Shown here piece by piece: positions 10,086 through 26,297 of a DNA stretch of 48,337 nucleotides (its first letter is position 1; the number at the start of each line of letters is the position of its first letter). The notes beneath the pieces are model-generated. The model saw only the letters and a list, made by a program, of their open reading frames with translations, made no database searches and was not told the origin of the DNA. The translations under genes and the position numbers were made by a program. Origin of the DNA: a virus (taxonomy: Duplodnaviria > Caudoviricetes); the IMG/VR virus record IMGVR_UViG_3300025154_000149, positions 1-48,337 of that record. One strand, given 5' to 3'.

Positions 10086-10234
10086 AGATAGTTTCTTACA
10101 AAGATAAAGCTCCACCAAGACATATACAACAGTTTTTTAACATATTGTTAAATTCTTAACACATTTTTTAGCTTTAGAAATTTTGAAGAAAAAAAGCATA
10201 CCCCCCCTAAAGGTGCCAAAAAGTGGCAAAATTC

Positions 10235-10501
10235 TGTAAGATTTAAAAAAAAGCTTCTGTAATGCCCGGTAATTCTACCTTACAAAATTACACAACTGTT
10301 TTTAGCGATTTGTAAGATACTTGATAATGAGATAGTTAAAAACCGTACAACTTTGTAATTTTTTGTAATTATAAAGTTATTAAGACTAAATTAAAATAAT
10401 AATTTTAAAAAATTACAAAATAAAAATCAAGTTGTAAGAAAAATGTAAGACTATAACTAATTGATTTTCTTTAATTTATATTATAAAAATTACATATTAC
10501 A
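10235..10501. repeat. AT-rich cluster of TGTAA/TTACA iteron-like repeats; candidate replication origin
   Basis: About 12 TGTAA(G/T) copies in both orientations within ~270 non-coding bp, downstream of the primase operon. Confidence 0.55.
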
Positions 10502-10610
10502 GTTTTTTTTAATATTTGGGGTTAAAGGGGGAAAGGGCAAAAATGAGCCGCAAAAACTTTTTGTTTGAAGAGCGGTTTAATACGGTATCGCTTCGCGATG
10601 ATTTAATTAA

Positions 10611-10670: not shown

Positions 10671-10940
10671 TTACGTATGGTGTTTACGAACGGGTTTATT
10701 GTCGCTTAAATTATAAAACGCTTCGTGCTCTTCGAGCTTGGCGAGTTCTGTTTTAAGGTACTTCTTTATCCTGGCGCGTTGATTGTCTGTTAGCTCGCTT
10801 ATTCTAATATTGTCAAGTATCTTTTCAACTACCGGCCACCTGAAGGGCATGGCTGTATCGTTTATGTTTTTAATTATCTCGTCGATATCAATTATTGCTT
10901 CCACTTCCTGATCTACCAGGCCTTTTACTTTAATTTCCAT
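10671..10940 (-). CDS. Hypothetical protein
   Basis: 89-aa ORF in operon. Confidence 0.55.
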   Translation of the reverse strand: MEIKVKGLVDQEVEAIIDIDEIIKNINDTAMPFRWPVVEKILDNIRISELTDNQRARIKKYLKTELAKLEEHEAFYNLSDNKPVRKHHT

Positions 10941-10951
10941 GTTATATAGTG

Positions 10952-11194
10952 TTAATAGTTATCGTATGCAAATTTTACATTAAACAGGGTTTTTATATTT
11001 CCGTGGTTTTTCACTCCATTATAGCTCTTGCCTCTTTCGTTGGCAAAATCAGGTATGGTGGCCATATTTAAATACCTGCCATTTAGTTCAATATTTTGCA
11101 GTAAAAATTCGTTTGAAAGCTCCCCATTATATATGAGCTCTTCAATTCTGTTAAGTATTTTTTGCTCTTTTTCAGACAGTTGCATGTGGTTCAT
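10952..11194 (-). CDS. Hypothetical protein, possible HTH
   Basis: TIPDFANERGKSYNGV resembles an HTH segment. Confidence 0.5.
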   Translation of the reverse strand: MNHMQLSEKEQKILNRIEELIYNGELSNEFLLQNIELNGRYLNMATIPDFANERGKSYNGVKNHGNIKTLFNVKFAYDNY

Positions 11195-11227
11195 TATATT
11201 GAATTGGTGTTAGTAGGTAGTTAGCGT

Positions 11228-11416
11228 TCATTTGCCAACGCTCGGATAATCCTGTCTTAATAATAATCCAGTTTCATCATTAAAATATTCCTTACAAGCG
11301 GTGCATTTGAATTTTTGCAACGACCATATATATAATGCTCTTTTTTTACCGCAGATTGGGCATTTTTGCCAAAGCATTGCACCGCTTCCCCATCCACTAC
11401 CTTTAGTTCTTGCCAT
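11228..11416 (-). CDS. Small zinc-ribbon protein (cassette 1)
   Basis: CPIC...CTAC; stop codon abuts the GTTAGCGTT core. Confidence 0.6.
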   Translation of the reverse strand: MARTKGSGWGSGAMLWQKCPICGKKRALYIWSLQKFKCTACKEYFNDETGLLLRQDYPSVGK

Positions 11417-11453
11417 TTTATTTGCTGTTTCAACCGCCCACGCTCAAAAACGA

Positions 11454-11554
11454 AACGCTAACAAGCGGTATAGTTAATGTGCCTTTGAAAGCTTTTAGTA
11501 AATTGACAGGCAGGAGGTAGGCACACATAACCATACCGCCAGCCGTTGTGGTGC
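11454..11554 (+). repeat. attC-like site A
   Basis: AACGCTAAC..GCGGTAT.GTTA.TGTGCC / GGCACA..TAAC.ATACCGC.....GTT. Confidence 0.7.
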
Positions 11555-11556
11555 AT

Positions 11557-11838
11557 TTAGAATTGACGTACCAAAATAACATCAGGCATTTTTAAATCTA
11601 ATGGTTCTTTACACTGTCTATTAATTCTCAAAAATTCAGACCTAAATAACCCGTAAGTATATTCGTAATTAACAACTTCTTCAACTACTATTATTTCAGT
11701 ATCATCATCCATTTGGTTTGCCCAAAATGGAGATTTTAAAGAATGCTCCTCTATAAATGAAGCTTTTTTGCCCTTGCATATTTTTTTTGCTAAAGTTGTT
11801 TTACCCTCACCAGGTTTTCCTTGAATTGTAATTATCAT
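11557..11838 (-). CDS. Miniature P-loop NTPase (cassette 2)
   Basis: GKPGEGKT Walker A, IIVVEE Walker B-like; the MLWCVF extension in the ORF track is the attC core read antisense. Confidence 0.6.
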   Translation of the reverse strand: MIITIQGKPGEGKTTLAKKICKGKKASFIEEHSLKSPFWANQMDDDTEIIVVEEVVNYEYTYGLFRSEFLRINRQCKEPLDLKMPDVILVRQF

Positions 11839-11847
11839 AATAAAAAC

Positions 11848-11984
11848 GCACCACAACACAGTATAAAATCAAGCGGGGCTGTAGTGTCTTTTTGACCGCT
11901 TCGGCTGTTTAAGTTAGTTTTAGCTATCGGGAAGGTGTTTGCCGTTCATTCCCCGCCAGCTTTTATACTCGTCACGTTATAAAA
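11848..11984 (+). repeat. attC-like site B
   Basis: GCACCACAAC..AGTATAAAA....GCGGGG / CCCCGC....TTTTATACT......GTT. Confidence 0.75.
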
Positions 11985-12048
11985 CATTAAAACGATTTTA
12001 CAACACGTGCTATAATTAATGGCGGGTACAGTGCAATTAATCAACATC

Positions 12049-12255
12049 CTACAAGTTGTTTTTATTTTTTTGCCCGCCCGCTTCGTCTGCTAAGGCAGTC
12101 GTTTGGATTTCAGTCTGCCAGGTTTCGATGTGCTTAACAAGGCTTGTAATTTCTGCCTTGTATTTTTCAGGTATTCGATTTTTCCTAATATTCATCCGAG
12201 AACCGGAAAGGAGCCTTGAAAGCTCCCCCCAGTTGATTAAATCTTTTGCGCTCAT
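12049..12255 (-). CDS. Small putative DNA-binding protein (candidate autorepressor of the nested operon)
   Basis: INWGELSRLLSGSR HTH-like; ATG at 12255 overlaps upstream stop (ATGA). Confidence 0.5.
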   Translation of the reverse strand: MSAKDLINWGELSRLLSGSRMNIRKNRIPEKYKAEITSLVKHIETWQTEIQTTALADEAGGQKNKNNL

Positions 12256-12425
12256 TCCATTTTCCAATTTACTGATTCTGAAATTGCTTCGTCTAACGTA
12301 AATTGGTTTTTAGGGTAAATTGATTCTCCTAATCCTAATTTTAAATCAATGTAAAAGTTTTCTTCATCTTGCATTATTTCAGCATTTTCAAAACCCTTGA
12401 TTGTTTTTTCGATTTTAGTTTTCAT
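12252..12425 (-). CDS. 57-aa hypothetical protein (below ORF-track cutoff)
   Basis: Hand translation MKTKIEKTIKGFENAEIMQDEENFYIDLKLGLGESIYPKNQFTLDEAISESVNWKME; ATGA coupling. Confidence 0.6.
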   Translation of the reverse strand: MKTKIEKTIKGFENAEIMQDEENFYIDLKLGLGESIYPKNQFTLDEAISESVNWKME

Positions 12426-12444
12426 TTGTTTTGATTTTTTAATA

Positions 12445-12630
12445 TTACCATTTATACATAAAGTCGTATTGTTTTTTTGCTTCTTCCAAGGCTACTTCAC
12501 CAAATTCAACAACAATTTTTTCAGAAATAAAAGAGAAAGAAACTTCTCCGTTTTCATCCATATTGTCCATTACTAATTTTTCAACTCTTCCTTGAATTTT
12601 TGTTCTTGTGATAATGTCTATAGTTGTCAT
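12445..12630 (-). CDS. Hypothetical protein, first gene of nested operon
   Basis: 61 aa, directly downstream of a consensus-like promoter. Confidence 0.55.
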   Translation of the reverse strand: MTTIDIITRTKIQGRVEKLVMDNMDENGEVSFSFISEKIVVEFGEVALEEAKKQYDFMYKW

Positions 12631-12663
12631 TGTCGTATGTTTTAATTGTTATTAATTATGAAG

Positions 12664-12725
12664 TAAAGATAACCACGTTTGTGGCAATCACCAAATATTT
12701 ATGTAATTATTTTCCACATTTGTGG
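12664..12725 (-). promoter_or_regulatory. Bacteroidota sigma-type promoter with two palindromic operators
   Basis: TTTG (12692-95)-N20-TATCTTTA (12664-71); CCAC-N4-GTGG at 12673-84 and 12714-25. Confidence 0.7.
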
Positions 12726-12856
12726 TTATTTATTTTAATTCTAAATAAGAACAAAGAAAAAGCCCGCCCTAAAAAAAATAAAAACAGGGAACGGTAGTAT
12801 TTCAATCAAGGTTTCCGGGTTCAGTCCGCCACTAATCATAGCACCACCGTTATCGG

Positions 12857-13189
12857 TCATAGGCTGCTAAGCCATTCTGCCACCTTTAAACTTTTTTCTG
12901 TTTCAGAATCTACCAATTCATTTAACTTGTCATTCCTTTCCATGTATGGATCTACTTCACGGTTTTTAAGCATTGCACATAAGTTTTTTACAGGAGAGAG
13001 TTTATTCCTTATATCCGCAGCCAACGAAACGTCAACATTCAATAAAGCACATTGGTCGTGCGCTTTACAAAGCAATGCGTCTATTTTACTGGCTTCTTCT
13101 TCAAGCCAATCTTTGTCAATTTTCATTAACTCAACCCTTAATGATGTCAGCTTTTCAATAGCCTCATCTAATGTTTTTTGTATTTCCAT
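12857..13189 (-). CDS. Hypothetical protein spanning the left arm of attC-like site D
   Basis: ORF begins in the hairpin loop and reads through the arm (CALLNVDVS). Confidence 0.55.
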   Translation of the reverse strand: MEIQKTLDEAIEKLTSLRVELMKIDKDWLEEEASKIDALLCKAHDQCALLNVDVSLAADIRNKLSPVKNLCAMLKNREVDPYMERNDKLNELVDSETEKSLKVAEWLSSL

Positions 13190-13221
13190 AATCAACGTGC
13201 TTTATTTTTTACGTTATATCG
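13028..13221 (+). repeat. attC-like site D
   Basis: AAC....AATAAAGCAC (13041-50) / GTGCTTTATT (13197-206)......GTT (13213). Confidence 0.6.
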
Positions 13222-13597
13222 CAATCGCTCCGGGCATTGGAGTAACTGAAATATCCAAATAATACTGGCTATCTTCGAACCTTACCCATTCGCCATGCCT
13301 GTCTCCTCTATTAAGGCTAATAACATACGCATGTCTTCCTCCTGGTAAGGTTGTAAATGTAACTTCTTTGTTTTGGCTGGTTAATTCAACACCTGTTAAG
13401 TATTGTTGAAATTCCTTGATCATAAGTTGTTCTTTAGTAAAACAACATTCATTTGTCCAGGGAATTGCAATTAAATCTAAGTCGCGATTCATTGATCCGT
13501 GAACAACTAAGTTATATCCATATTCCATTGCAATGTTTTTCATTTGTTCGTAAAACATGGCGTATAATCCGGGTTTGAAATGTTTTGGCTTTTGCAT
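13214..13597 (-). CDS. Minimal nucleotidyltransferase-fold protein
   Basis: hHGSMNRDLDL fits the pol-beta superfamily GS-x-DxD motif with short spacing; stop codon lies in the GTTA core. Confidence 0.55.
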   Translation of the reverse strand: MQKPKHFKPGLYAMFYEQMKNIAMEYGYNLVVHGSMNRDLDLIAIPWTNECCFTKEQLMIKEFQQYLTGVELTSQNKEVTFTTLPGGRHAYVISLNRGDRHGEWVRFEDSQYYLDISVTPMPGAIAI

Positions 13598-17578: not shown

Positions 17579-17875
17579 TCAAGTGAACTCGTAGTATTCG
17601 TTATCACCCTTGATTATTGTTGTGAATGGAAATTTGTTTTCAGGTACTTTTTTTATCATTTGTATTAAAACAATTGATCCTGTAAATACAATTCTCTTTT
17701 CTCCTGATTTCTCAATTTGAAGCGTTAACAATTCAGTTCCAGCTTTTTGTTTTGAGGGTTCTATTTTAAATGCAATAACTGTTATTTGTAAATTAAACAG
17801 TCTTGATATGGATATTTTTTCTCCAACAAAAGAGCTTATATTTGGCTTTATTCCAAAGTCTTTAAATTGATGCAT
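17579..17875 (-). CDS. 98-aa protein overlapping the RT stop; candidate DGR accessory factor
   Basis: 14-nt overlap with RT; beta-strand pattern unlike all-helical Avd. Confidence 0.55.
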   Translation of the reverse strand: MHQFKDFGIKPNISSFVGEKISISRLFNLQITVIAFKIEPSKQKAGTELLTLQIEKSGEKRIVFTGSIVLIQMIKKVPENKFPFTTIIKGDNEYYEFT

Positions 17876-18824
17876 TTGATAATAGTTTTTTAATTAAATG
17901 ATTGGAATTGCAATGTTTCATCCACCCTTTATAAGATGCTATAGAAGCATTATTAGGATTCTTTTTCAACATTCGGGCAAAGTTTTGTTTAATACGTTTT
18001 CTTAGTAAAATGTGTGTATGGTAAATTCTATATCCGACAAAATCTATTCCGCGAGAAACTATAGGAAAAACCTGATAATTTTCTTTTATTATAAGTTTCA
18101 GGTTGCTTTTTAAATAGAATTTAATTTCTGCCAGAAGATTGTGTAAATATGCTTTTGAATGATGAAGTATAACAATATCATCAGCATATCTGAAGTAATA
18201 TTTTACTTGTTTGTTTTCTTTGATCCAGTGATCAAAGTAAGTAAGATAAAAGTTTGCTAAATGCTGACTTAAATAATTGCCTATAGGCAATCCATCTGCA
18301 CTATCTATTATTTCTTCAAGCAACCAAATTAAATCCGCATCTTTAAACTTACGTTTTAAAAGTTGCTTTAAAATATCATGATCTATGCTAGGATAGAACT
18401 TTACTATATCCAACTTTAAACAGTAAGTAGTTCCTTTAATATCTTTTAGCGATTTTTTAACATAATTAAGTGTTGCGTGTATTCCTTTTCCTTTTATACA
18501 ACTGTAAGAATCTGCAGTATAAACTGTAGTAAAAATTGGTTCTAAAATATTCATTATAGCATGATGGGTTATCCTATCAGGAAAATATGGCAACCTATAA
18601 ACTTCGCGTTCCTTAGGTTCATAAACCTTAAATATTTCGTAATCAGAAGTTTTATAAGTTCTATTTTTTAGCATTTTATGAAGTAATATCAAATTAGATT
18701 TTTTGTTTCTGTTGTGTAGTTGCACACCATATTGTTTAGATTTTCCTTTTTGAGCTTTTTTGTCAGCTTCTTTAAGGTTTTCAATGCTTATTATTTTATT
18801 ATATAAATTTCCTATTCGTTTCAT
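17862..18824 (-). CDS. DGR reverse transcriptase
   Basis: YFRYADD catalytic motif, LPIGNYLSQ (DGR-type SQ), KLDIVKFYPSI, DFVGY; 320 aa with no maturase/endonuclease domain; adjacent TR. Confidence 0.95.
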   Translation of the reverse strand: MKRIGNLYNKIISIENLKEADKKAQKGKSKQYGVQLHNRNKKSNLILLHKMLKNRTYKTSDYEIFKVYEPKEREVYRLPYFPDRITHHAIMNILEPIFTTVYTADSYSCIKGKGIHATLNYVKKSLKDIKGTTYCLKLDIVKFYPSIDHDILKQLLKRKFKDADLIWLLEEIIDSADGLPIGNYLSQHLANFYLTYFDHWIKENKQVKYYFRYADDIVILHHSKAYLHNLLAEIKFYLKSNLKLIIKENYQVFPIVSRGIDFVGYRIYHTHILLRKRIKQNFARMLKKNPNNASIASYKGWMKHCNSNHLIKKLLSNASI

Positions 18825-18923
18825 GCCTTTGCTTTATAAAGTCGTTTTCCATTTCTGTACCAACGCCTTTGTTATGTTTGTTGTTTTTTGCCTTGTTGGC
18901 AAGGTCTGCGATGCTATATTTTT
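18825..18923 (-). ncRNA. DGR RNA 3' spacer between TR and RT
   Basis: 99-nt gap with hairpin TTGCC-AACAA-GGCAA (18888-18902); role inferred by analogy to the BPP-1 spacer. Confidence 0.5.
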
Positions 18924-18998
18924 GCATAGGTGAGAGCTGACATTCGAATTCGTATTCCAATTATCGTAGTCGTTATACCGAAAAGCTGAAGAGCTAGC
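18924..18998 (-). repeat. DGR template repeat (TR)
   Basis: Sense GCTAGCTCTTCAGCTTTTCGGTATAACGACTACGATAATTGGAATACGAATTCGAATGTCAGCTCTCACCTATGC; 20 adenines, mostly at codon positions 1-2. Confidence 0.95.
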
Positions 18999-19023
18999 CC
19001 AAAGCATCACACAACCTGTTTTT

Positions 19024-19413
19024 TTATAATAAATATTCGTTAAATAAGTCAATAAATTGATTGCCAATATATTCTGCTATTTCACTTGAATTAAAGCAAA
19101 GGCGAGAGCCGACAGACGAAACCGTAGCCCAATAAGCGCAGACGAGACACCGAAAAGCCGAAGAGCTAGCATCATAATCAAACCAGATTTCATACTTTCT
19201 TTCATTATAATTGCTAAAGTCAGGTGTCCATTCTTTACCATTATTTGCAAGTTTATTGGCTGCTCTTACTATTATAACAAGCTTTGCATGTGCAATCATA
19301 GAAGCCCTGTCCTTTTCAGGATAACATGAAAAATCAGGAATGACTTGTTTGGGATCTAATTCTAATACTTTACAAGCATCTTCAAACGTTTTTAATTCTT
19401 TGTACTTTTTCAT
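19024..19413 (-). CDS. DGR target protein 1 (129 aa)
   Basis: Contains VR1 ending in GSRLCF; paralogous to 19428-19895. Confidence 0.9.
   Translation of the reverse strand: MKKYKELKTFEDACKVLELDPKQVIPDFSCYPEKDRASMIAHAKLVIIVRAANKLANNGKEWTPDFSNYNERKYEIWFDYDASSSAFRCLVCAYWATVSSVGSRLCFNSSEIAEYIGNQFIDLFNEYLL
19096..19170 (-). repeat. DGR variable repeat VR1
   Basis: 75 nt aligned to TR, 17 mismatches, all at TR adenines. Confidence 0.95.
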
Positions 19414-19427
19414 TTTTTATAGATTAA

Positions 19428-19895
19428 TTAATTAATTAACATGAATTTTTTGTATAAATCAGTGAATTGCTCACCTGCAAACCTTGCCAGTTCAGAAGAT
19501 TTAAAGCAAAGGCGAGAGCCGACATCCGAACTCGAATTCCAATAATCGTAGCCGTCACACCGAAAAGCCGAAGAGCCCATTTTAAACCAGGGATAATATT
19601 TGTATTGATTATCATTATTCCAATCGGGTACCCATCCTTCATTGAGTGATTTACATAATAATTCAGCTATATATTGATGCTTTAAATGACCTGGTGCATT
19701 TTCAAACATTTTATCAATTTCTTTATGAGTAATGTTATTATCTTCCAATACATCGTCAATAGTCCTGATCCTATCAGTTACTTTTTTAATAAATACTTTT
19801 TCACCGAAAAGGTTTTCAAGTAGTTTTTTACCATTTGGTTTGGCGTTAAGATGTGCTTTTAAAGCATCTTCTTTTTTAATTTGTAGTGTTTCCAT
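19428..19895 (-). CDS. DGR target protein 2 (155 aa)
   Basis: Contains VR2; shares WxPD...KYxxWF and GSRLCFxSSExAx(Y/F)xGxQFxDL with target 1. Confidence 0.9.
   Translation of the reverse strand: METLQIKKEDALKAHLNAKPNGKKLLENLFGEKVFIKKVTDRIRTIDDVLEDNNITHKEIDKMFENAPGHLKHQYIAELLCKSLNEGWVPDWNNDNQYKYYPWFKMGSSAFRCDGYDYWNSSSDVGSRLCFKSSELARFAGEQFTDLYKKFMLIN
19506..19577 (-). repeat. DGR variable repeat VR2
   Basis: 72 nt aligned to TR, 12 mismatches, all at TR adenines. Confidence 0.95.
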
Positions 19896-25097: not shown

Positions 25098-26297
25098 ATG
25101 AGAAAAGTTATTTATGTTAAGCCTGAACTAAAAGATTGCTCCGGCGATCTTTCAAAAGCTTGGTATGTGGAATATTCATATCGAAATCCAAAAAATGACA
25201 GGCTGGGGCGTTTCCGTATATATAAAGGATTAAGTGATGTGGATGCTTCCTTAAGAAGGAAAAATGCAACCAAAATAATTAAGCTGTATAATGAAAAGCT
25301 TATAAACGGATGGTCGCCTTACGAGCCCGAAAACAAGGTTTTTGAAGATCAGTTAGAGTACCACAATATTGCCAGGATATACACCCGGAAGCGCATGAGC
25401 AACCAGTCGGTTAAAATTCATTTTTCAGCTTTCCTTGAAGAATGTAAATTGAAGATATCGCCAAAATCATACGAGAGCTATCAGAGTAAAATAAGGCTGT
25501 TTGCACAATATATTGAATTGCGCAAAAAAAACATGAACGACATTAGCGATTTGACAAACGATTTTGTAAAGTCTTTTTTTGCCTGGATAATTAAAGAGCG
25601 CAACCTTGATAAAATTACGGTGTTGAAGTACAAACAAAACCTGAATGCCCTGTTTAAATATTTGCTCTCGAAAAAGCTAATATTCGAAAATCCGGTTTAC
25701 AACATACCTATTCCGATAAAAAAAGTTGACAATAAAGCACAGGAATTCTTAATAGAGGACAGGCAGCAACTTCTTCAATTAATTAAAGCGGGAGATCCGC
25801 AGCTTTATCTTGCTTGTTTGTTTCAGTATTATTGTGCAACAAGGCCCGGAAGCGAGTTGCGATTGCTTAAAATTAAGCAGATAAACTTTAACGCCGGTGT
25901 GGTTTACATCCGGTCAACGGAAGCAAAAAACAACAATTCAAGAGTAATACAGTTGCCCGATAGCTTTAGTAACATCCTGAAAAAATACGGTATACACAAT
26001 TATAATAAGGAGTTTTATGTTTTTTCGAAGCTTGGTATTCCGGGACCAGAAGCACTGGGAAAAAATACATTGCGCAACCGGTTTAACCATTTTAGGGATT
26101 ACCTTGGATTAAGTAAGGATTATAAGTTTTATAGCTGGAAACATTCCGGAGCCGGGGCATTAGATGACATTAATATTCCGTTACGTGATATTCAAAAACA
26201 TCTTGGGCACTCAAGCCCTGGTTATACGGCTATATACCTCAATAGAAGAAGGGGGTTTAAGAATGAAAAGATAAGATATAATTTTCCGGATCCTTAG
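25098..26297 (+). CDS. int: Tyrosine integrase
   Basis: TRPGSEL (R), K, FYSWKH, LGHSS, TAIY catalytic motifs; N-terminal arm-binding region. Confidence 0.9.
   Translation: MRKVIYVKPELKDCSGDLSKAWYVEYSYRNPKNDRLGRFRIYKGLSDVDASLRRKNATKIIKLYNEKLINGWSPYEPENKVFEDQLEYHNIARIYTRKRMSNQSVKIHFSAFLEECKLKISPKSYESYQSKIRLFAQYIELRKKNMNDISDLTNDFVKSFFAWIIKERNLDKITVLKYKQNLNALFKYLLSKKLIFENPVYNIPIPIKKVDNKAQEFLIEDRQQLLQLIKAGDPQLYLACLFQYYCATRPGSELRLLKIKQINFNAGVVYIRSTEAKNNNSRVIQLPDSFSNILKKYGIHNYNKEFYVFSKLGIPGPEALGKNTLRNRFNHFRDYLGLSKDYKFYSWKHSGAGALDDINIPLRDIQKHLGHSSPGYTAIYLNRRRGFKNEKIRYNFPDP

Follow-up and report, generated by a model that had tools for sequence, protein, structure and literature searches.

Between positions 11,198 and 13,221 of a 48,337-nucleotide stretch of viral DNA (Duplodnaviria; Caudoviricetes; IMG/VR record IMGVR_UViG_3300025154_000149, positions 1 to 48,337), four units resembling integron gene cassettes lie one behind the other, each with a GTT core at its start and an AAC core in front of an attC-like hairpin. 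The whole 48.3-kb virus record is called the window below; related loci carry labels of the form L### and homologous proteins labels of the form P####. L001, L002, L008, L011, L332, and L333 are the same genome as the window and were excluded from the counts of relatives. The array consists of the following parts (ORF, open reading frame; aa, amino acids).

11198..11222, plus strand: left border of the array with the first GTT (G at 11220); no hairpin on its left; attI-like by position, degenerate in sequence
11221..11545, plus: cassette 1 (TT to G), body 11220-11462 and site 1; core pairing with its own start 6/6
11228..11416, minus: cassette 1 gene, 62 aa, CxxC zinc-ribbon-like ORF; Zn_ribbon_IS1595 at E 2e-05, slightly under the curated cut-off
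11454..11553, plus: site 1, attC-like hairpin (AAC 11460, GTT 11545), from the bottom-strand fold
11546..11976, plus: cassette 2 (TT to G), body 11545-11857 and site 2; homologues keep the GTT core, with unrelated DNA on its left
11557..11838, minus: cassette 2 gene, 93 aa, P-loop NTPase/kinase-like; 29 homologues, weak P-loop family matches under cut-off
11849..11984, plus: site 2, attC-like hairpin (AAC 11855, GTT 11976), from the hairpin scan
11976..12004, plus: cassette 3 body, empty, 29 bp, GTT-n6-CATTAAAACGA-n6-AAC, from comparison with relatives
11996..12857, plus: site 3, 850-bp hairpin (AAC 12002, GTT 12849) with arms at ~12002-12080 and 12762-12851, from folding; cargo in the loop
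12049..12255, minus: loop gene, 68 aa, phrog_34662 (function unassigned); a homologue (85%) in the L093 loop, another in L337
12252..12425, minus: loop gene, 57 aa, ORF with zero family matches
12445..12630, minus: loop gene, 61 aa, ORF with zero family matches over cut-off
12664..12725, minus: Bacteroidota-type promoter-like motif (12664-12695) and imperfect palindromes (12673-12684, 12714-12725), inside the site 3 loop
12850..13213, plus: cassette 4 (TT to G), body 12849-13036 and site 4; weakest core pairing, 3/6
12857..13189, minus: cassette 4 gene, 110 aa, chimeric; begins within site 4 and continues across the core
13028..13221, plus: site 4, long attC-like hairpin (AAC 13034, GTT 13213), from the hairpin scan

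All eight core motifs described in an earlier note on this DNA were found in place, as were the four minus-strand stops (11228 TGA, 11557 TAA, 12857 TGA, and 13214 TAA). Sites were located with a custom scanner for AAC..GTT hairpins. In the first scan, sites 1, 2, and 4 (11460-11547, 11855-11978, and 13034-13215) were the top three such hairpins anywhere in the 48 kb. When the minimum length was lowered, the 2-kb array region gave four matches, namely these sites and a 34-bp palindrome inside an ORF. Against those four, dinucleotide shuffles (n = 300) gave no match in 273 cases, one in 26, and two in 1, which settles the concern that shuffled DNA might often yield such hairpins. The view that each AAC opens a hairpin closing at the next GTT held for sites 1, 2, and 4, but AAC 12002 closes at 12849 only as an 850-bp structure. 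This site 3, whose arms are 850 bp apart, went unscored by the scanner; the arms were conserved in relatives, and the outer stem, present in both the minimum-energy and the centroid folds, encloses three ORFs and the promoter-like motif. The bottom strand of site 1 folded at -16.6 kcal/mol (z -2.76; 2/200 shuffles equally stable). At the right end of the array, the GTTA of site 4 shares bases with the TAA stop of gene 13214-13597, the phage gene upstream.

Over the six variable core bases, each left core paired better with the start of its own unit than with the next start (6 versus 2, 6 versus 1, 5 versus 1, and 3 versus 0 in units 1 to 4). Own-core pairing was likewise better in 181, equal in 14, and worse in 17 of 212 phage units, and better in 30, equal in 2, and worse in 3 of 35 bacterial units. 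Of the core features of integrons (RYYYAAC / GTTRRRY, complementary within a cassette), the GTT and AAC triplets and the pairing were present, and the RYYY/RRRY letters were loose. Own-start pairing had been put forward earlier as the signature of cassettes inserted at G|TT; that own beats next was borne out, but the test is symmetric between strands and so cannot alone show that the genes are antisense. As proof of polarity, own-core pairing was rejected.

Cassette boundaries, gene orientation, and the linked recombinase

A search for cassette 2 homologues returned 52 loci, mostly weak or from the window genome, and 13 were examined in detail. The GTT core was kept at the gene end in 8 of the 13, with 77-100% identity over the 13 bases from GTT versus 24-48% over the 25 bases on its left. 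A matching AAC core was found in five of these eight; in L014 and L017, the changes in the cores are compensatory. The arm behind the AAC was identical to site 2 in L012 (100%) and 52-64% identical in four others. In L012, which also has a recombinase, cassette 2 is 90% alike to the window copy and the homology stops at G 11976. To the right of site 2 in this locus (L012:640-845), the core G is kept and the TT is lost, so that cassette 2 adjoins non-GTT sequence. L013 was considered as a clean breakpoint and rejected as ambiguous, having no GTT and a duplicated flank. Four of the 13 loci held the gene without cores; it occurs in this form, as an ordinary phage gene, in L009, L010, L018, and L020.

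The left hairpin of cassette 2 thus changes while the right one travels with it, and in chromosomes the same asymmetric site stands after a sense gene. The plus strand of the window is therefore the cassette top strand, and the window genes lie antisense to it. Among 215 distinct phage units, 180 were called antisense and 3 sense, with no call for 32; the 35 bacterial units comprised 27 sense, 2 antisense, and 6 without a call. The integron arrangement, in which sense cassette genes are read from the attI end, was seen in 27/35 bacterial units but in only 3/215 phage units, and not in the window, where all four core-adjacent genes (4/4) are antisense, as the earlier note had proposed; the polarity itself was set by the relatives. 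An all-against-all cassette comparison gave only 7 pairs in different contexts, too few for a per-base breakpoint curve.

Cassette exchange was examined in 15 contig pairs with near-identical recombinases and enough upstream DNA. Six pairs were collinear and nine diverged, eight of the nine within 3 bases after a GTT (7 at the first GTT, 1 at an internal one). Together with the cassette 2 homologues, these pairs bear out the expectation that boundaries in related phages fall at G|TT. L084 has ~800 extra bases between the primary site and the first cassette of L087. In complete phage elements, this primary site is a hairpin-less consensus whose end before GTT is TATATA-rich; its distance to the recombinase start is mostly 37-53 bp. 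A comparable hairpin-less site, read by eye, stands ~70-110 bp past the recombinase stop in many bacterial loci. A counterpart of integron attI is thus found in complete relatives, and in the window by position only. In L012, the first 24 bases are identical to the start of cassette 1 at the window border, next to a flank that is likewise G/T-rich; the recombinase start is 47 bp away.

The recombinase of L012 is a 285-aa tyrosine recombinase that starts 47 bp left of the first GTT. Its catalytic motifs are present, it aligned to Vibrio IntI4 (2a3v) in two pieces, and it scored 187.6 on TIGR02249, against a cut-off of 265. We used the best 80 (68 distinct) of 197 relatives in viral contigs, and 80 of the ~6500 estimated matching stretches in the genome collection, nearly all titled Bacteroidota. 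In phage loci, 329/346 polar sites lay upstream of the recombinase on the opposite strand; in bacterial loci, 77/93 lay downstream on the same strand. A site was present in 57/61 phage loci with at least 1 kb of upstream DNA, compared with 6/78 on the downstream side, and in 35/48 bacterial loci with enough downstream DNA, compared with 3 and 1 of 71 on the upstream side.

In a 69-row alignment, whose tree rows included 47 array-type, 13 IntI, and 5 Xer sequences, the I2-region segment measured 48-55 aa in all 47 array-type rows versus 96-98 in IntI and 60-62 in Xer. The I2-bearing insertion of integron integrases is absent from the array-linked recombinase, and the window has no IntI. The 47 array-type rows fell on one side of a branch with an SH-aLRT of 95 (IntI 99, Xer 100), outside the IntI clade. 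Recombinases linked to IS91 lie near the array-type clade in the tree. The nearest non-Bacteroidota recombinases without the insertion (L245-L247) stand beside IS91-type or other transposases, not arrays; they fell outside the 47-row clade, and the site pattern gave 1 short match across all three. They are a possible link between rolling-circle single-stranded DNA and the origin of the array recombinase.

The earlier note had left room for an otherwise unrecognised recombinase, and the candidate is now identified as this Bacteroidota family without the IntI insertion, found in many phages and hosts and absent from the window phage. The search of Bacteroidota hosts proposed in that note turned up similar sites in chromosomes, but IntI over the TIGR02249 cut-off in 0/5 Bacteroidota genomes holding such sites or the recombinase. 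A match to the recombinase family at E 1e-60 or better was found in 60/201 genomes of the phylum, the centre genome included (below 1e-100 in 19), a count of matches by E value rather than of clade membership genome by genome. On the Acinetobacter plasmid NZ_CP060813 (L241:4043-6150), tet(X3) stands behind a 5'-truncated recombinase of the array clade and an attI-like GTT. After the gene come just an AAC and a left arm, and tet(X3) resembles the first cassette of a chromosomal-type element.

Two features of the window bear on the missing enzyme.

10671..11194, minus: two small ORFs, 89 aa and 80 aa, in the slot that holds the recombinase in L012 and Leef_1; zero family matches
25098..26297, plus: ordinary prophage integrase (phrog_1, Phage_int_SAM_5); 42 bits on TIGR02249 versus a cut-off of 265; outside the array-type clade

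The TIGR02249 score upholds the statement that the window has no IntI and, with the position outside the array-type clade, ruled out this integrase as the cassette enzyme. A tblastn search for a recombinase remnant in the window found none. A complete element occurs in a cultured phage, Polaribacter phage Leef_1 (L239, MT732473, 24700-29000), with recombinase Leef1_38, a primary site, five sites, and bottom-strand genes; it lies between primase and head protease, the slot of the window array. Cellulophaga phage Ingeline_1 (L240) has the recombinase and a degenerate border, and the scanner scored zero sites upstream.

Hairpin anatomy and cargo

Site anatomy was compiled from 283 distinct phage sites and 74 bacterial sites. 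AAC is followed by one unpaired A versus 4-5 bases in the opposite arm, then by a stem of ~12 pairs with several pair types; position +7 is near-invariantly T (98%), and position +15, opposite C or G, near-invariantly A (97%). In spacer and extrahelical-base pattern, the array sites depart from canonical attC. The attC architecture described earlier thus stood as regards cores and hairpins, but the spacer of 1 versus 4-5 unpaired bases and the conserved A at +15 make the sites non-canonical.

Stem mismatches of phage sites (n = 302) comprised 218 top-strand A-C and 25 G-T, against backgrounds of 21% and 10%; G-T wobbles are therefore favoured on the bottom strand. The bottom strand was the more stable one in 217 of the 283 phage sites (top 32, tie 34), where it is also the transcript, and in 49 of the 74 bacterial sites (top 23, tie 2). 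At +15, a top-strand A-C was present in 52/62 bacterial sites used. The phage mismatch bias thus speaks for a single-stranded DNA substrate without proving it. Phage site lengths (L060-L139) cluster at 40-49, 70-89, 110-129, and 180-199 bp, and gene starts inside the hairpin rise with site length (7/82, 54/91, 5/7). By the longest ATG frame, which may overcount, 66/180 antisense phage ORFs start inside a hairpin.

Cargo was found both in bodies and in hairpin loops. When the site 3 right arm was used for a scan, 7 loci came up, one being the window genome. In three of the others, with a gene-less body in front, the arms enclosed long loops with other cargo: 897 bp with an N6/N4 methylase in L335, 967 bp with a D12 methylase in L334, and 654 bp with the promoter-like motif, a homologue of the 68-aa gene, and another ORF in L337. 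The other three, L336, L338, and L339, measured 192-193 bp, and two of them are apparently one sequence. The gene-less body of cassette 3 also occurs in L014, L065, L073, L081, L088, L113, L116, and others. The motif CATTAAAACG (window 11985-11995; L014, L017, L094) was noticed at the centre of empty cassette bodies and in the loop of a 46-bp site class; since it is found in both alike, a shared type of apex is hinted at as the point where either cargo slot opens.

The promoter-like motif and both palindromes were conserved in L093 and L337. Motif matches in the window numbered 8 versus 8.6 expected, i.e. chance level, and the sigma-70 and Bacteroidota promoter scans were likewise at chance level. 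The loop motif may be an autoregulated promoter driving the cassettes on its left, and the 68-aa loop gene, which gave zero usable matches against the Atlas, may encode a small DNA-binding regulator. A 34-bp near-perfect palindrome (12201-12234) lies within this gene and also in its L093 homologue.

The N-terminal half of the cassette 4 protein is common to P0034-P0036, whose C-terminal halves differ, and its C-terminal half to P0031-P0033, whose N-terminal halves differ; the join is at the core, and the gene is a chimera. A copy of site 2 in L079 (89% identity) stands after a different gene, and the arms of site 1 recur in L065 (84%) behind other DNA; bodies and hairpins have therefore also been re-joined at the AAC end.

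The carrier phage

Family searches showed that the window encodes a head protease, a tape measure protein, an endolysin, an ordinary integrase, repressor-like genes, and a reverse transcriptase. These genes mark the virus as a temperate tailed phage. A Bacteroidota host seems likely because the related provirus L009 links to Tamlana and because the array sites match Flavobacteriaceae and Algoriphagus chromosomes. L009 (96% complete) has a primase 29% identical to that of the window and a cassette 2 gene homologue whose C-terminus matches a Tamlana protein; with an array and an ordinary integrase only, it is in the same orphan state as the window.

Searches for close relatives with the primase, a 180-aa gene, and the cassette 4 gene returned nothing besides the window genome itself. 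In cultured phages, the sole match to the window array was 45 bp; the exact site 2 pattern gave zero matches in viral contigs, and the cassette 2 profile gave zero relatives in bacterial genomes. Elsewhere in the window, positions 17579-19895 hold the reverse transcriptase (17862-18824), a 92-bp repeat pair (19075-19166 / 19485-19576, 80% alike), and two phrog_11581 ORFs, and look like a diversity-generating retroelement targeting small non-tail genes. Left of the array, AT-rich non-coding DNA with many short repeated words (10200-10520), similar to a stretch after the L012 recombinase, is possibly a replication origin.

Interpretation and comparison with known systems

We interpret the region, with a probability of roughly 0.85, as an orphan array of four mobile cassettes that belongs to an integron-like system of Bacteroidota and their phages and was likely built by a short tyrosine recombinase without the IntI insertion. 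It works like an integron cassette array but lacks IntI, the canonical site geometry, and the integron gene orientation, and we do not class it as an integron. By comparison of relatives, a cassette runs from TT through the body and AAC to the hairpin and G. The recombinase without I2 would catalyse cassette exchange, and it is predicted to act on the folded bottom strand with crossover at G|TT. In complete phage elements, new cassettes appear at the hairpin-less attI-like site, and the recombinase gene begins 37-53 bp to the left of it. Phage cassettes and recombinase are oriented in one direction and would be transcribed either from the early operon that follows the primase or from the promoter cassette; in chromosomal arrays, these same sites go with sense genes and lie downstream of the recombinase. 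Cargo sits in the body or in the hairpin loop, and genes starting in the loop can fuse to different bodies, as one protein family shows. The window phage, which has no recombinase, probably lost it, and further shuffling of its array would need recombinase in trans from the host or a co-infecting phage.

Several points weigh against this interpretation. The recombinase is absent from the window, the link between enzyme and site is a genomic association, and deletion of I2 abolishes IntI1 function, according to the accessible part of PMC7790495. The tree came from a quick search, with deep forks and sister relations left without resolution. Against an attI-like matrix whose 39 training sites score 8.4-24.1, the window's left border reaches -8.8 (rank 71 of 1970 GTTs) and departs from the main consensus; the matrix also misses the borders of L012 (-5.8) and Ingeline (-3.2), both of which adjoin a recombinase. 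Core pairing of unit 4 is weak (3/6), and the hairpin scanner was home-made rather than IntegronFinder. The eight GTT-breaking pairs derive from three groups of near-identical contigs, the L094/L095 pair breaks inside a body and not at GTT, and contigs of four sequencing runs gave fragments only, with no joints and no evidence either way. The phage wobble bias is confounded because the bottom strand in phages is also the transcript; in bacterial sites, the bias is weaker and unclear (n = 99 mismatches; A-C 45, G-T 24; background 20% and 12%), becoming 44 versus 7 only after post-hoc removal of position 6.

The array may by now be a frozen relic that an ancestral phage's recombinase assembled and that is kept only for its genes, with shuffling at an end. 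This is compatible with the favoured origin, and we give it somewhat less than even odds: the missing recombinase, the degenerate left border, the 3/6 core of unit 4, and the equally orphaned L009 provirus with its ordinary integrase point that way, whereas units 1-3 retain 6, 6, and 5 of 6 core pairs, cassette 2 is 90% alike to the copy in recombinase-bearing L012, and the family matches in 60/201 phylum genomes at E 1e-60 or better make supply in trans plausible. A different origin is improbable. If the hairpins were RNA elements of the phage transcript (leader, processing, or stability) and the genes moved by homologous recombination between conserved flanks, one would understand why the folding strand in phages is the mRNA strand and why 66/180 antisense ORFs start within a hairpin; yet bacterial sites, transcribed from the opposite strand, keep top-strand A-C at +15 (52/62), the breakpoints coincide with GTT next to a site that has no hairpin, the two ends of a body pair with each other and co-vary, and arrays lie on one side of the recombinase. 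An Rfam scan of the window also gave zero matches.

We regard as marginally less probable still that the region is an ordinary cluster of attC sites lacking an integron integrase (CALIN), with canonical attC cassettes taken from a host integron and moved by host IntI. A site cluster without integron integrase is what was seen, the sites having been scored by a custom pattern rather than an attC covariance model; GTT/AAC cores and a bottom strand predicted to fold are as in attC, and published phage CALINs include that of Polaribacter phage P12002L, where IntI1 recombined one site of two (accessible text of PMC9892861). Against this stand the 0/5 Bacteroidota genomes with TIGR02249 over cut-off, the different spacer geometry, a site pattern that matched nothing in one class 1 and one Vibrio integron locus, and a report, in the part of PMC5027507 available, that cassettes facing the promoter are never observed in integrons. 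The lowest probability goes to a misread polarity, i.e. a standard sense-oriented array on the minus strand. The sites are near-palindromic, own-core pairing is the same on both strands, and identical hairpins and chimeric proteins speak for re-joining of body and hairpin at the AAC end too, but in relatives the left hairpin of cassette 2 differs (24-48%) and the right one co-travels (100% in L012, 52-64% in four others), the hairpin-less end lies on the left beside the recombinase, the contig-pair breakpoints contradict a reversed reading, and bacterial arrays of the same asymmetry have sense genes.

With the integron-like array as the preferred interpretation, we consider it an even bet that a second cassette-capture system is widespread in Bacteroidota and their phages, with an I2-less recombinase acting on folded single-stranded hairpins. 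It would be an independent invention of the integron or a living form of the pre-I2 stage that the literature describes as missing. Phages would use it backwards and with two cargo slots, would make new proteins from loop-encoded N-termini and body-encoded C-termini, and would turn ordinary genes into cassettes by entry into an empty frame. Three observations bear on how cassettes are made: frames that are empty, a gene that occurs both with cores and without them, and one hairpin standing behind different genes. Surveys recognise IntI by its extra domain and would overlook a family with ~6500 estimated genome stretches and 197 viral relatives; almost no complete integrons have been reported in Bacteroidetes by integron surveys, as stated in the accessible part of PMC9024848. 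The I2 insertion is held to enable single-strand recombination, and intermediates are said to be lacking (PMC7790495, in part); cultured Leef_1, with its complete element, makes I2-less single-strand recombination directly testable. The 'integrase' genes of such phages have been taken as signs of lysogeny (PMC8776804, in part), a reading that may be wrong for the array recombinase family. In the literature covered, which included few subscription papers and several sources in part, no description was found of a cassette system of Bacteroidota that uses an I2-less recombinase, of antisense cassettes in phages, or of cargo in the loop.

With integrons (IntI, attI, and attC; class 1 and Vibrio), the system shares the GTT/AAC cores, own-start pairing, a hairpin predicted on the bottom strand, and a hairpin-less primary site beside a tyrosine recombinase at which new cassettes enter. 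It differs in its recombinase, which has no IntI insertion and stands in a clade of its own; in the site spacer (1 versus 4-5 bases) and the conserved A at +15; in the antisense orientation of phage genes; in loops that can hold cargo; and, in chromosomes, in a recombinase that lies upstream of the array and is co-directional with it. Xer proteins use dif and are not known to build cassette arrays. XerC/XerD resemble the array recombinase as I2-less enzymes using a single-stranded substrate, the folded single-stranded CTXphi DNA (PMC7790495, in part), but their clade is separate. The integron-like simple tyrosine recombinases of Smyshlyaev et al. (2021; PMC8138268) differ in that, in the accessible text, the insertion is called essential for integrons to function and insertion-less forms appear without linked arrays. 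The phage CALINs of Qi et al. (2023; PMC9892861), including P12002L, are likewise clusters of attC-like sites in phages without integrase, and the 17 CALINs may include arrays of the window type; in the part of that paper available, however, they are read as attC sites used by IntI, and a recombinase of another kind, a rule of antisense genes, and cargo in the loop go unnamed. In IS91-associated recombinase elements, a recombinase is followed by an IS91-type transposase with no array, and the window type does not fit this group. Finally, the recombinase upstream of tet(X3) on NZ_CP060813 falls in the array clade and corresponds to the 'xerD' beside tet(X) of PMC7473080 and PMC11194056, where the accessible text notes adjacency alone, with no cassette or site; its place within the array clade suggests how tet(X3) was first captured.

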